A stretch of 64,000 nt of DNA from Prevotella sp. CAG:279. Lineage in GTDB: Bacteria > Bacillota > Clostridia > Lachnospirales > Lachnospiraceae. Each line of letters starts with the position of its first letter. The first letter of the stretch is position 1. The notes under the pieces are model-generated. The model was not told where the DNA came from. It searched no databases and saw only the letters and a program-made list of their open reading frames with translations. The position numbers and the translations under genes are program-made. The stretch is from positions 36,879-100,878 of the forward strand of contig CAVHNP010000001.1 of the NCBI GenBank assembly GCA_963637505.1, in the 5' to 3' direction. Shown piece by piece: positions 51,427-54,759 of the stretch.

Positions 51427-51516
51427 TTTTTCTCTCCTCATCGAAGATATCACTATTTCCATGGAATGAATCTTCAAGCAGCGCATTTCCAAAAGAAAAG
51501 GCTTTGCTCCGCTCTC

Positions 51517-51939
51517 TTATGATGCAACTGCTGCACCAAGGGCATTGCATTCTGCGATCGCGTCATCATCCGGTGCTTCATTTGCGATCACGCAGTCGTA
51601 GCATAACTGAACACCCAGATCGTCGCATTCGGATTCCCAGTTTCTCATCCACTCGCCGTCTCCCCAGCCATAGGATCCGAAAAGAGCTACCTTCTTACCA
51701 TTCAGCTTGCCCTTTACATCATCCCACATCGGCTGGAACTCGCTCTCCTCCAGAACCTCGCATCCCATGGAGGGGCAGCCAAAAGCAATGCCTGTATAAT
51801 CAGCAATCTTAGCTGCGGTAAAATCACCTGCAAAGATCAGATCCGCTTCAACGCCTTTTCCCTTTGCTCCGTCTGCAACCGCATTCGCCATTGCCTCTGT
51901 GTTTCCGCCGCCTGTCCAAAATACAACTGCTACTTTCAT
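51517..51939 (-). CDS. Flavodoxin
   Basis: 140 aa beginning MKVAVVFWTGGGNTE, with a short-chain flavodoxin pattern. Confidence 0.85.
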   Translation of the reverse strand: MKVAVVFWTGGGNTEAMANAVADGAKGKGVEADLIFAGDFTAAKIADYTGIAFGCPSMGCEVLEESEFQPMWDDVKGKLNGKKVALFGSYGWGDGEWMRNWESECDDLGVQLCYDCVIANEAPDDDAIAECNALGAAVAS

Positions 51940-51963
51940 TTTCTTTTTCCTTTCAATTTAAAC

Positions 51964-52515
51964 TCAGATCGATACGAGCAGGCCTTCTAAGCTGGTTCCC
52001 CTTCCCGAGCGCTCCTGATAATTTCTTGTACATCTGCGATAACGCTCAAAGGTACGTTCTGCCTCTTCCTGATTCCCGTATACTTTCCAGGTTCCCACGC
52101 TCTTACAGTTGCGCGCACTGTTTTCTATAAAGCCTTTTACATCTTCCGGAGGATAGCTCAAAAACAAGCCGATCTCATGAGGAAAATCCGCACTCTCCCT
52201 CAGCCTTCTTTTCAGCTCACATAGGCATTTTCCTACGCTCTCACAGGCATAACCCCTTTCCCGAAGCAGTTCCTGCACTTCCTTTCTGCAAAGGTCATCC
52301 TTTAACCTGCCCGGACGGTAAAGATATAAAAGTACTCTGCCCTTATCATAGTGCAAGGGGATCAGACAGATTCCCTTGGCACGAAGCCGCCTGTTATAGG
52401 TCTTCAGTTCATCTAAAAATACGGCACGATCCTCGGCCCGGACAGAAAAAAGGCTTCCTGTTTTGATGCCAGCCAGAGTTGGTGCTCCATGATCTATCAA
52501 TGTCTGATCTGACAT
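51964..52515 (-). CDS. DUF3793-family protein
   Basis: 183 aa; the sequence type is commonly found next to flavodoxin in Clostridia (family recognised from memory). Confidence 0.6.
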   Translation of the reverse strand: MSDQTLIDHGAPTLAGIKTGSLFSVRAEDRAVFLDELKTYNRRLRAKGICLIPLHYDKGRVLLYLYRPGRLKDDLCRKEVQELLRERGYACESVGKCLCELKRRLRESADFPHEIGLFLSYPPEDVKGFIENSARNCKSVGTWKVYGNQEEAERTFERYRRCTRNYQERSGRGTSLEGLLVSI

Positions 52516-52538
52516 AGAACCTCCGATTTTCAGGGGGG

Positions 52539-52566
52539 ATGTGGGTTAGAAAAATCTAACCCACAT
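52539..52566 (-). promoter_or_regulatory. 11-bp perfect hairpin in the 5' UTR of the DUF3793-flavodoxin operon
   Basis: atgtgggttag-aaaaat-ctaacccacat. No U-tract follows on either strand. Confidence 0.5.
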
Positions 52567-52615
52567 ATAAAAAAATAAAGATATCAGGTACTGTTAGCTC
52601 TCGCTAACTGTCGTT

Positions 52616-52643
52616 AGTATATCACATCTTTCGAAAAGGTCAA
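52616..52643 (-). promoter_or_regulatory. Promoter (-35 TTGACC, 16 nt, extended -10 TGATATACT)
   Basis: Counted on the minus strand. Confidence 0.5.
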
Positions 52644-52699
52644 TAGGTTTTTTAAGATTTTTTGCAAGTCCTTATGATAGCTATTTCCCTGGCCAGGCC

Positions 52700-52728
52700 T
52701 TGAAAGCAGCTTCTATCCGTGCTATTAT
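52700..52728 (+). promoter_or_regulatory. Promoter (-35 TTGAAA, 17 nt, -10 TATTAT) firing antisense into the 3' end of the 49-codon ORF
   Basis: Counted on the plus strand. No plus-strand protein gene lies downstream. Confidence 0.45.
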
Positions 52729-52734
52729 GATTCA

Positions 52735-52838
52735 TAAATAAAGAAGGTGCTACCGATAGACGGCTAGCCCTATGCTAAATCAAAACGACGGTCGTTCTAA
52801 TCTTTGCTAGGGATTTTCTAACGGCGGTCGTTTTTGTG
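52735..52838 (+). ncRNA. Candidate ~100-nt antisense RNA (putative type I antitoxin)
   Basis: Inferred from the promoter at 52700 and the weak hairpin + T-run aacggcggtcgttttt at 52820-52835. It overlaps the last ~20 nt of the small ORF and its 3' UTR. Confidence 0.3.
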
Positions 52839-52967
52839 TGCATCTCGATGTCCTTCGCCTTCCTTCTCGCTGATATATCTTACAATCTTTTCAACGAGTT
52901 TTCCGACTGTGATTCCAAAACCAAATACTGCAAGGATAAATCCTGCTAATGATATGCAATCCATCAT
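52818..52967 (-). CDS. Unannotated 49-aa hydrophobic peptide (candidate type I toxin / small membrane protein)
   Basis: Hand translation gives MMDCISLAGFILAVFGFGITVGKLVEKIVRYISEKEGEGHRDAHKNDRR. An AAGGAGGG RBS lies 10 nt upstream. It falls below the 60-aa track cutoff. Confidence 0.5.
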   Translation of the reverse strand: MMDCISLAGFILAVFGFGITVGKLVEKIVRYISEKEGEGHRDAHKNDRR

Positions 52968-53097
52968 ATTTGCATCACCCTCCTTTCTTTATCAGCTATT
53001 GCTGCCAGGAGGGCTTTTCACATCCCTCCTTCATATAAAAGAAGGGCCAGCCGCCTACCGTTTCATGGTAGCACCCTGTCTCTTTCGAGACTCTTAC

Positions 53098-53126
53098 AGA
53101 ATATCAAATTTTATAGCCATTGGCAA
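53098..53126 (-). promoter_or_regulatory. Promoter for the small-ORF mRNA (-35 TTGCCA, 17 nt, -10 TATTCT)
   Basis: Counted on the minus strand, immediately after the degV stop. Confidence 0.4.
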
Positions 53127-53127
53127 T

Positions 53128-54021
53128 TTATTGTTTATGCTCGTAAGCATATTTGGTCTTCACGGCAAGACCGATGCCTCTTCCGCCGGGACCGGTATGA
53201 CAGCAGACACCCATAGAAAGCTCATCTCCGATCACATCATAACCCGGAAACTCCTTCTCGATCTCCCTGATCCATTCCGCTTCCTCTTCCTTGGTCGCAG
53301 AAACTGCCGACATGAGATAGATCTCTCCGGCTTCCGCGGCGTCTTTGAATCTTCCTTCCAGTTCCTCATGGATCTGGTCAAACATCACCTTCTGTGCCTT
53401 CTTCAGGCTTCTGGCATTCTTCCAGGAATGAAGAACTCCTGTATCCAGCTGCAGGATCGGTTTGATATGAAGGGCTGTTCCCACCGTTGCCTTGGCCTTT
53501 GAAATACGGCCACCTGCTTTGAGGTACTCTAAGGTATCTAAAACAATATAGATTGAGACGTCCTCTGCCGTTGCTTCCAGCATCTCCTGCAACTTCTTCG
53601 CCTCATAGCCTTCCTTGATCAGCTCAATCGTATCTAAGATCGTCACATGCATCGGTGTGGAGGTACGACCGTTATCAACAACGAAGACCCGGTCCAGATA
53701 CTTTTCTTCCTGAGACAGGAGCTTTGCTGTATTGGCAGAACCACTAAGGCCTCTTGAGATCGGGAAATATAGGATCTGCTCATATTCCTCTAAAGCAGCA
53801 TCCCAGAAATCCATCAGTTCTGTCGGCGTTGCCTGAGAGGTTGTGATCTTTGCCCCCTCTGCCTGCAGCTGAAAGAACTCTTCTCTATTGATAGAGATAT
53901 CTTCATAATAGGTTTTGTCATTGATATGATATGGCATGGGCAGAACCCTGATTCCCAATTCCTTTGCCATCTCCTGGCTGATGCTGGAATGTGAATCCGC
54001 CGTAATTCCGATCTTCTTCAT
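53128..54021 (-). CDS. DegV-family fatty-acid-binding protein
   Basis: 297 aa with a full-length DegV-like sequence. Confidence 0.85.
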   Translation of the reverse strand: MKKIGITADSHSSISQEMAKELGIRVLPMPYHINDKTYYEDISINREEFFQLQAEGAKITTSQATPTELMDFWDAALEEYEQILYFPISRGLSGSANTAKLLSQEEKYLDRVFVVDNGRTSTPMHVTILDTIELIKEGYEAKKLQEMLEATAEDVSIYIVLDTLEYLKAGGRISKAKATVGTALHIKPILQLDTGVLHSWKNARSLKKAQKVMFDQIHEELEGRFKDAAEAGEIYLMSAVSATKEEEAEWIREIEKEFPGYDVIGDELSMGVCCHTGPGGRGIGLAVKTKYAYEHKQ

Positions 54022-54186
54022 CCTACGATCCCTCGCTTTGTGAATTTATTAACCTAACTATATTAGCAAAAAAAATTGAGAAAATAAATCCTTTTTTCCT
54101 GCCGCTCCTGTTACATTTTTTTATAAATGTTCCCGGCAAACGCTTTTGCTTTTCTGCTTCAAGCTTCAAAAAATCCGGACCGGCAC

Positions 54187-54759
54187 TTACATAATTTCCG
54201 AAAAAACACCTGCCTCTGTTACCACCTTACGGAAACGATAATCCGTCTCTTCCATGGGAATGTAGTCTTCTATTAAAGCCTCCCGACAGATCATAACCTC
54301 TCCCGTCTCCAGCCCCCTGAAATAACGGTCGTAAAAGCCTGCTCCATGGCCAAGGCGGTTTCCCTTATGATCACAGGCCAGACAGGGAATGACCGCCAGA
54401 TCCTCTTTTCCAAGAAGAAGCGTTTTCGCCGTATGCGGCGGCTCCATGATGTCATAATATCCTCTCTCCAGCTCCCCCAGACTCTTCACGATCTTCGCCT
54501 CCATGATCCCCTTTCCGATACATAAGGGAAGGGCAAGCGTTTTCCCGTCAGATAAAACCTGCTCTAAAAAGGGTCTGGTATCAATCTCAGACTCCATTCC
54601 GGCAAAGGCAAAGACCCGCTTCGCCTTCTTATACTCCGGCAGATCCAGAAGATATTCTATGATTTTCCTGTCTGCTTCTTTTTTATACTTCTCCTCTAAG
54701 GCAGCTGTTTTTTCCCTGATTTTTCTTCTCAGCTCTTTCTTTTCTTCCTTTATGGTCAT
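54187..54759 (-). CDS. 5-formyltetrahydrofolate cyclo-ligase
   Basis: 190 aa with the GHGAGFYDRYF motif. Confidence 0.85.
   Translation of the reverse strand: MTIKEEKKELRRKIREKTAALEEKYKKEADRKIIEYLLDLPEYKKAKRVFAFAGMESEIDTRPFLEQVLSDGKTLALPLCIGKGIMEAKIVKSLGELERGYYDIMEPPHTAKTLLLGKEDLAVIPCLACDHKGNRLGHGAGFYDRYFRGLETGEVMICREALIEDYIPMEETDYRFRKVVTEAGVFSEIM

Follow-up and report, generated by a model that had tools for sequence, protein, structure and literature searches.

The DNA analyzed here is a stretch of 64,000 nucleotides (nt) from contig CAVHNP010000001.1 (assembly GCA_963637505.1, Prevotella sp. CAG:279, with a lineage in the Lachnospiraceae), referred to below as the window. Within it, a DUF3793 gene (51964..52515) and a DegV gene (53128..54021), both on the minus strand, are separated by 612 bp, and this gap is occupied by a small module with two convergent units: a gene for a short hydrophobic peptide on the minus strand and a putative antisense RNA gene on the plus strand. 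A preliminary description, made from the sequence alone, had proposed this module as a candidate type I toxin-antitoxin locus, and we have now compared it across approximately 40 related loci. Read in the sense of the peptide mRNA, the architecture common to the aligned loci begins with a promoter, an optional 5' hairpin, an element that we call A with its CCCUUCU tail, a mimic of the Shine-Dalgarno (SD) sequence (B), an anti-SD (C) and the real SD (D); it continues with the open reading frame (ORF), a terminator hairpin, an element that we call E with a U-run, and finally a promoter on the opposite strand.

The ORF itself (49 codons; 52818..52967, minus strand) is preceded by AAGGAGGG-N10-ATG and encodes an N-terminal transmembrane helix, a charged tail and a C-terminal KNDRR. 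Both the ORF and its SD are where the preliminary description had placed them, and its account of the product as a hydrophobic helix followed by a charged tail agrees with what we found: residues 4-22 are hydrophobic (mean Kyte-Doolittle value 2.15), and the tail carries 8 K/R and 6 D/E residues. A search of 5.8 billion proteins returned 18 homologues with 59-96% identity, nearly all of them 48-52 amino acids (aa) long, with 14 invariant columns that are concentrated in the hydrophobic helix, a VGK-x-x-EK motif and the C-terminal KNDRR; the ratio of nonsynonymous to synonymous substitution rates (dN/dS) over 26 distinct coding sequences was ~0.33. The constant length of about 49 aa, the invariant columns and the low dN/dS together indicate that the ORF is conserved as a protein and not only as DNA, which was the check that the preliminary description had proposed, and they bear out its view that this is more than a chance ORF. 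A conserved hydrophobic peptide of fewer than 60 aa with a transmembrane segment is what would be expected of a type I toxin. The family is small and narrow, since a profile search of 1.84 billion representative proteins gave only 68 matches. An exact look-up of the window peptide found no record, so that its close homologues were used in its place; Pfam, NCBIfam and PHROGs held nothing meaningful for the window peptide or the 18 homologues, and there were no NCBI cluster names for the peptide.

Facing this gene is a plus-strand promoter at 52700..52728 (TTGAAA, a 17-nt spacer and a TG-extended TATTAT; 10/12 score), as had been described earlier. Of 28 distinct loci, 26-27 retain the pattern TTGnnn-17-TGnTAnnAT, always equally far from E, with a spacer of exactly 17 nt whose sequence varies freely; hexamers, TG and spacing that are fixed while the spacer sequence drifts form the pattern of a working promoter. 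There is indeed no plus-strand gene for it to serve, as the only long ORF there (52834..53502) is antisense to DegV and begins beyond the antisense terminator; a small ORF within the antisense RNA (MLNQNDGRSNLC) was considered and set aside, as it is not conserved. The predicted transcript of ~105 nt (52736..52840, plus strand; ends inferred) would consist of a 5' hairpin, a spacer, and a terminator hairpin (T1) with its U-run, and would cover the last 5-7 codons and the whole 3' untranslated region (UTR) of the peptide mRNA. The 111-nt form that was folded reached -36.4 kcal/mol (z = -3.7), dominated by the T1 stem, and the same two-hairpin fold was predicted in all 17 loci folded. The earlier prediction of an antisense RNA of ~100 nt is thus supported by a conserved promoter, terminator and fold, and the hallmark of a type I system, an antisense RNA gene encoded in cis that has a promoter and a terminator to itself, here with an overlap of ~105 nt, is present by sequence and by conservation. 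A search with Rfam models at E up to 5, on both strands of 51500-54500, gave only chance matches, all outside the locus.

T1 (52782..52834, both strands) is a bidirectional intrinsic terminator with a U-run in either direction: its arms, 52782-52796 and 52820-52834, are 15 bp long, 87% complementary and followed by TTTTT. The hairpin and T-run at ~52820-52835 had been noticed before and called weak; the hairpin is in fact strong. A duplication noticed at the same place (AACGACCG(C/T)CGTT) exists as well, as the two arms of T1 and not as a separate direct repeat; each arm is nearly palindromic. The 5' arm in the mRNA sense (52820-52834) is made of the KNDRR codons, and in L013 and L014 a G to A change in that arm (Asp to Asn, KNDRR to KNNR) is matched by C to U in the 3' arm, so that the terminator co-varies with the C-terminal codons.

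The peptide mRNA would be transcribed from a minus-strand promoter at 53098..53126 (-35 TTGCCA, 17-nt spacer, TG-extended -10 TATTCT; 9/12 match), with a predicted start near 53091. A -10 box of the same type (TTGATATTCT/TTGATAATCT) is also found in L001, L003, L004, L006, L010 and L035-L044. The optional 5'-terminal hairpin (GUCUCGAAAGAGAC; 53078..53091, minus strand), seen in the minimum free energy (MFE) fold, co-varies in L008 (GCCUCGUAAGAGGC), L014 and L011, and is absent from the closest relatives, L035 and L036, owing to an indel of 16 nt. The stop codon of DegV (53128) directly adjoins the -35 box (window 53098-53128) and no terminator was detected between the two; read-through from DegV could produce 5'-extended toxin transcripts.

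Promoters of a different kind occur in other parts of the family. In at least five lineages (L002/L007, L011, the L012 group and L015 among them), a LexA (Cheo) box, GAACN4GTT[CT], overlaps the toxin promoter, against a background rate of 0.011 per 90 nt; the loci with such a box include L012 and L017-L030, and boxes with one mismatch were seen in L003, L005, L006 and L009. This motif is the LexA operator of Bacillus and Clostridium (PMC4234289). Because the box overlaps the toxin promoter, those homologues are probably SOS-inducible. A candidate box (AGAACATTTGTTCT) is present in Coprococcus ammoniilyticus H1_22 (L012), a cultured strain that carries the module; a second AAAACAACCGCC in L007 was judged a chance match. 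The window copy and its relatives have the TG-extended -10 type of promoter instead, and no LexA box was found near the window copy, so SOS control is a trait of part of the family and not of this locus.

The 5' and 3' ends of the mRNA are complementary to one another. Element A, the 5' strand of this clamp (53044..53075, minus strand), consists of A1 (GGUGCUACC, 53075-53067), a variable loop (53066-53060), A2 (GGUAGGC, 53059-53053) and A3 (GGCUGGCCC, 53052-53044), all on the minus strand; element E, the 3' strand (52746..52770, minus strand), reads GGGCUAGCC GUCUAUC GGUAGCACC. The inverted repeat at 52746-52770 and 53044-53076 had been said to let the 5' UTR pair 9+9 bp with the 3' UTR. The pairing stands and its length was underestimated: with G:U pairs the helix is 9+7+9, or 25 bp instead of 18. 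The A:E duplex has a predicted energy of -50.7 kcal/mol, which 0 of 2000 dinucleotide shuffles reached (z = -7.1), E is the best partner of A anywhere on that strand of the 64-kb window, and the probability of the A1:E1 helix is ~0.98 in 15 loci (ViennaRNA). In L035 and L036 and in the Coprococcus group the -10 box lies just upstream of A1, so that the clamp would bring together the extreme ends of the mRNA. After E comes a U-rich tract (52735..52745, minus strand; its opposite strand is the A-rich start of the antisense RNA), with a run of 3-5 U after CACC in most loci, which is likely to be the 3' end of a long form of the mRNA.

The loop within A differs in length from locus to locus (5 to 43 nt), while its flanks A1, A2 and A3 are retained. 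A full-length MAFFT alignment misplaced A1 in loci with long loop insertions, and pairs were counted on a trimmed construct with 17 distinct A/E variants. Standard pairs formed in 96% of the cells; five pairs had changed on both sides (e.g., A:U to G:C in L005 and L014, and G:C to A:U in L001); the covariation score was reached by 1 of 500 shuffles; and sliding the partner columns lowered pairing to 24-49% of cells. The mismatches between the arms are 68 G:U cells on the mRNA strand versus ~11 A:C cells, and as events in A1 and A2 the ratio of G:U to A:C is ~11 to 1; this excess of G:U on the mRNA strand argues that the pairing takes place in the RNA of one strand and does not reflect DNA symmetry. 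The complement of E forms the 5' hairpin of the antisense RNA, which is therefore a copy of element A in the same sense. That the antisense RNA would compete for the 3' segment had been foreseen, and the shared sense agrees with it: the antisense 5' part would compete for E and would not bind the leader.

Inverted repeats of ~25 bp that flank a unit with changing surroundings, transposases near some of its loci, and partial copies (the second copy in L011, and L016) would also be the features of mobile or repeat DNA resembling a miniature inverted-repeat transposable element (MITE), with A and E as its terminal inverted repeats and the ORF and promoters incidental. We regard this as very improbable, since the conserved stretch continues beyond the repeats on either side as far as two promoters with fixed spacing, purifying selection acts on the ORF, the mismatches in the repeats are mostly of the G:U kind on the mRNA strand, and the loop within A varies in length as described; the viral contigs, phage collection and plasmid collection that were searched held no relatives of the module.

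Upstream of the start codon lies a chain of four boxes, all on the minus strand: the A tail (CCCUUCUUUU, 53037..53046), an anti-SD-like tract; B, the SD-mimic AGGAGGG (53024..53030), kept in nearly all loci and followed directly, with no spacing, by an AUG; C, the anti-SD CCCUCCU (53007..53013), which can pair with B or with the real SD; and D, the real SD AAGGAGGG (52978..52985), 10 nt before the ATG. The AUG beside B probably does not open a start-stop ORF, as it is missing in the L012 group and L013. The preliminary description had placed B, C and the real SD in this order, with B and C at these positions, and had proposed that C can pair with either SD copy; the boxes are not only conserved, they change together. 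In L013 (UBA1766), B, C and D have all been altered (GGAGGU, ACCUCC, GGAGGU, i.e., GGAGGG to GGAGGU twice and CCCUCC to ACCUCC) and the A tail follows, and in L011 and L014 the SD variant AAGGGGG is accompanied by the anti-SD variant CCCUCUU. The MFE fold of the window mRNA contains the A tail:B and C:D pairs. The A tail has an alternative partner in an AAGGG just upstream of E, and pairs with sequence 5' of E in L012 and L013 (read by eye).

The predicted probability that the SD is unpaired is 0.01 in the window copy, with a mean of 0.25 over 15 loci; blocking of the 3' UTR, which the antisense RNA would bring about, lowers this mean to 0.085, with the largest drops in L002, L008, L011 and L014 and none in the window copy. 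These folds hint at, without proving, a competition between E and B for the A tail, which the antisense RNA would relieve. SD sequestration and 5'-3' long-distance pairing, either or both of which silence type I toxin mRNAs (PMC8594479), are thus both predicted here.

The module is not tied to its present neighbors. Genome and metagenome scans gave 34 loci, mostly labeled Lachnospiraceae, Acetatifactor, Marvinbryantia or Coprococcus ammoniilyticus, and the genes around them vary from locus to locus: DegV and DUF3793, as in the window copy and its closest relatives L035 and L036; GH42 and a two-component system; ParE and an M23 peptidase; or transposases, ComM and DprA. Two genomes have two copies of the module each (there is no second copy within the 64-kb window), and similarity ends at the two outer promoters, in L035 and L036 as well. 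With differing neighbors, two copies in some genomes and conservation that stops at the outer promoters, the module behaves as an autonomous unit, as far as comparison of sequences can tell. The same neighborhoods bear on the idea that the module is a cis-regulatory leader or attenuator of the downstream DUF3793-flavodoxin genes, with the small ORF as its leader peptide. Its position on the same strand ~300 nt upstream of DUF3793, its SD/anti-SD alternatives and its terminator would suit that role, but varying neighborhoods with unrelated genes already contradict it, DUF3793 has a promoter of its own at 52643..52616, the peptide sequence itself is conserved, and the antisense promoter would have no role; we consider it extremely improbable.

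Several side observations concern these neighborhoods and copies. Downstream of the DUF3793 promoter, the 5' UTR of that gene (window 52539-52611, minus strand) contains a perfect hairpin of 12 bp at 52539-52566 as well as another palindrome at 52590-52611, nearly unchanged in L035 and L036 (with single-base differences in L036) and without an Rfam match; they may be an uncharacterized leader structure. A 5'-truncated copy of the module, at L016:3001-3200, is reduced to the ORF's C-terminal half together with the terminator, E and an antisense promoter that has degenerated, in a genome that also has an intact copy (L009). At L011:3575-3700, ~700 nt downstream of the module, a second LexA-box promoter, 5' hairpin and element A are fused to unrelated sequence after the SD-mimic, which may be a recombination remnant or a leader reused for another gene. 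The homologous locus at L041:35-504 lies ~3 kb from a type II ParE/DUF6290 toxin-antitoxin pair.

Taken together, it is very probable that the module comprises a real peptide gene with a cis-antisense RNA. That it is a true type I toxin-antitoxin pair is a step further, which we consider probable, though with less assurance; by its sequence it is a well-supported candidate for a family unlike any described type I family, and of a kind that is already known. Deletions that have arisen naturally bear on this step. In L030, L031 and L034, which represent a single lineage, a deletion of ~190 nt removes E and the antisense promoter and leaves the terminator in place; all three carry L12F at an otherwise invariant Leu, and L034 has a 1-nt frameshift in addition. 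Such changes are what would be expected if an unguarded toxin must be attenuated, and they can be taken as an indirect hint of toxicity.

The evidence for a real gene and an antisense RNA fits equally well with a gene for a small membrane protein that is not a toxin and is controlled by cis-antisense RNA and SD sequestration, the antisense RNA being an ordinary regulator; a small membrane protein induced by stress or by the SOS response, with a modulating effect on a transporter or the envelope, would be an example. We think this unlikely; some of what favors it also weighs against a toxin-antitoxin pair in its own right. L030 and L031 retain an intact ORF after loss of the antisense gene, and therefore an antitoxin is not strictly indispensable in every background; the peptide tail mixes acidic and basic residues and is not strongly cationic, unlike the Lys-rich tail of many Gram-positive toxins; and the neighbors of the window copy are housekeeping genes (DegV, DUF3793, flavodoxin). 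The remaining points on that side concern resemblance and mechanism: the window peptide and its homologues match none of the known type I toxin families in Pfam, and there is no covariance-model match to the 13 type I antitoxin RNA families in Rfam (number per PMC8594479); a closed SD is predicted for the window copy whether the antisense RNA is present or not (0.01 either way); T1 sits between the stop codon and E, and therefore many mRNAs may end before E and the clamp needs read-through transcripts; and the covariation in the clamp amounts to few independent events, because the elements are highly conserved. On the other hand, multilayered silencing is a signature of type I toxins (PMC8594479), and ordinary small proteins rarely combine an SD/anti-SD pair and its decoy with a clamp, an antisense promoter close to the consensus and, as in homologues, a LexA box. 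The module is also scattered, multi-copy and in places decayed (L016, L034), like selfish toxin-antitoxin loci, and the copies that lack the antitoxin have changed at an invariant residue.

If the module is a type I toxin-antitoxin pair, it may work as follows. A sigma-A-type promoter would produce an mRNA of ~355 nt for the 49-aa peptide, and the conserved convergent promoter an antisense RNA of ~105 nt, fully complementary to the last codons and 3' UTR of that mRNA and ending at the bidirectional terminator built on the KNDRR codons. Folding and co-variation suggest that the mRNA is silenced in two ways: the anti-SD (C) would pair with the real SD (D), which it is free to do because the SD-mimic (B) is held by the CCCUUCU tail of A, and the 5' and 3' elements A and E would close the 25-bp clamp. 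By analogy with Gram-positive systems that overlap at the 3' end, the antisense RNA would most likely form a long duplex with the 3' UTR and so mark the mRNA for double-strand-specific cleavage. A second action is possible, in which the antisense 5' hairpin, having the same sequence as A, would displace A from E and push the chain of A tail, B, C and D towards sequestration of the SD, as is predicted in several homologues. The peptide, when made, would presumably damage or depolarize the membrane.

A more elaborate version of this second action gives E the role of an activator within the mRNA molecule, and has the antitoxin mimic the 5' end of that mRNA. E, by clamping A, would take the CCCUUCU tail away from the SD-mimic; the freed B would capture C and the real SD would open; and the copy of A in the antisense RNA would then strip E away, so that the chain of A tail, B, C and D flips closed. 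We put this relay forward tentatively and consider it doubtful; it is not evident in the window copy, where the SD is predicted to stay closed whether the antisense RNA is there or not. If true, translation would be shut off by competition between strands at the distal end of the mRNA, in addition to duplex-triggered decay.

To our knowledge, toxin-antitoxin systems of type I are almost unknown in the abundant Lachnospiraceae commensals of the gut, and we know of no SOS-controlled type I toxin family described before in Gram-positive anaerobes. Should the toxin reading hold, this family, with its LexA boxes, would be the first of that kind; the literature was searched and none was found. Its interest lies in an unusually legible architecture, in little-studied hosts and in a mimicry or relay mechanism that can be tested: the whole RNA architecture (both promoters, the codon-fused bidirectional terminator, the co-varying clamp and the decoy-SD chain) can be read by comparison, and the family offers both hypotheses for mutational tests, with Coprococcus ammoniilyticus H1_22 as a cultured strain that has the module and a LexA box, and a sequence descriptor for the annotation of gut genomes. 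If the peptide is toxic, the family would be a candidate for connecting DNA damage to arrested growth or to persistence in gut anaerobes, and possibly a counter-selection tool for them.

Compared with known systems, the module has all the determinants that T1TAdb lists for type I toxin mRNAs (SD/anti-SD pairs, 5' stem-loops, 3' terminators and 5'-3' long-distance pairing) as well as the layout of the Gram-positive families, in which the antisense RNA overlaps the 3' end (PMC8594479). The likeness does not extend to the peptide sequence. The Pfam copy that we used detects Fst, Hok, TisB, Ldr and TxpA/BsrG/BsrE as positive controls; the peptide gave no match to the Fst and Ldr profiles (PF13955, PF13940), and the window peptide and its 18 homologues gave none to Hol_Tox (PF16935) at E up to 10, where the controls TxpA, BsrG and BsrE do match. 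A remote homology to TxpA/BsrG, suspected from an N-terminal Y-x-S-L motif, was dismissed at an hhalign probability of 2%, and a literature search for this peptide family found nothing. The preliminary description had compared the peptide to Fst/Ldr/TxpA-type toxins and the RNA to hok; what remains of the first comparison is the TxpA-like helix with a charged tail, as opposed to family membership, and of the second the fold-back principle, without a HOK_GEF match or an antisense RNA against the 5' leader.

The closest parallels in gene layout are TxpA/RatA, BsrG/SR4 and BsrE/SR5 of Bacillus subtilis, which are likewise convergent, the overlap of antisense RNA and toxin mRNA lying at the 3' end of the latter and taking in the end of the ORF, and whose toxins likewise have an N-terminal transmembrane helix and a charged C-terminus. 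RatA and SR5 reportedly act via a long 3' duplex and decay of the mRNA, which is also the likely action here. Unlike these, the module possesses a decoy SD and a 5'-3' clamp of 25 bp, lies outside prophages and shows no sequence relationship to them.

The mRNAs of Hok (plasmid R1) and AapA1 (Helicobacter pylori) pair their 5' and 3' ends and sequester the SD, and in Hok/Sok and AapA1/IsoA1, as is proposed here, it is the full-length mRNA that is locked in this way by its extreme ends. In those systems, however, it is the 5' leader that the antisense RNA binds and 3' trimming that brings activation, whereas the antisense RNA of the module, unlike Sok and IsoA1, complements the 3' strand of the clamp and mimics the 5' strand. 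The module also differs from Hok/Sok in having no mok-type leader ORF and no HOK_GEF match, in the location of the antisense gene at the 3' end and in its Gram-positive host. In the par system (Fst/RNA II) of Enterococcus faecalis plasmid pAD1, the two genes likewise converge into one common bidirectional terminator; a 5' structure hides the ribosome-binding site of the par toxin mRNA, a likeness to the module, and a helix protects the mRNA 5' end. par has direct DNA repeats, with RNA II complementary to the leader of RNA I and an interaction outside the overlap, whereas the repeats of the module are inverted, and therefore the 5' domain of its antitoxin is a copy of the mRNA 5' element, in the same sense as the leader, and cannot pair with it; nor is there an Fst_toxin match.

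Among clostridia, the systems CD2517.1-RCd8, CD2907.1-RCd9 and CD0956.2-RCd10 of Clostridioides difficile have toxins of 50-53 aa and convergent overlapping genes, and resemble the module in their clostridial host, N-terminal transmembrane region and charged tail (PMC6563280). The module, by comparison, is not near CRISPR arrays or in prophages, and its promoters are of the Sigma-A or LexA type and not Sigma B; C. difficile phages are reported to carry homologues of the toxins (PMC6563280), and tblastn of the phage collection, whose inclusion of those phages was unchecked, found no module match. A review of clostridial type I systems gives only the C. difficile modules and predicted TxpA/Fst-like ORFs in two species (PMC6563280). 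For the homologues with LexA boxes, the SOS induction of TisB/IstR-1, DinQ/AgrB and SymE/SymR of Escherichia coli (PMC6563280) suggests a likeness in control; the window copy, however, lacks such a box, the peptide shows no homology to TisB, and the E. coli systems have another arrangement of their antitoxins and Gram-negative hosts. In its working principle, the module would combine the 3' overlap of TxpA/RatA with the end-to-end fold-back of Hok and AapA1.

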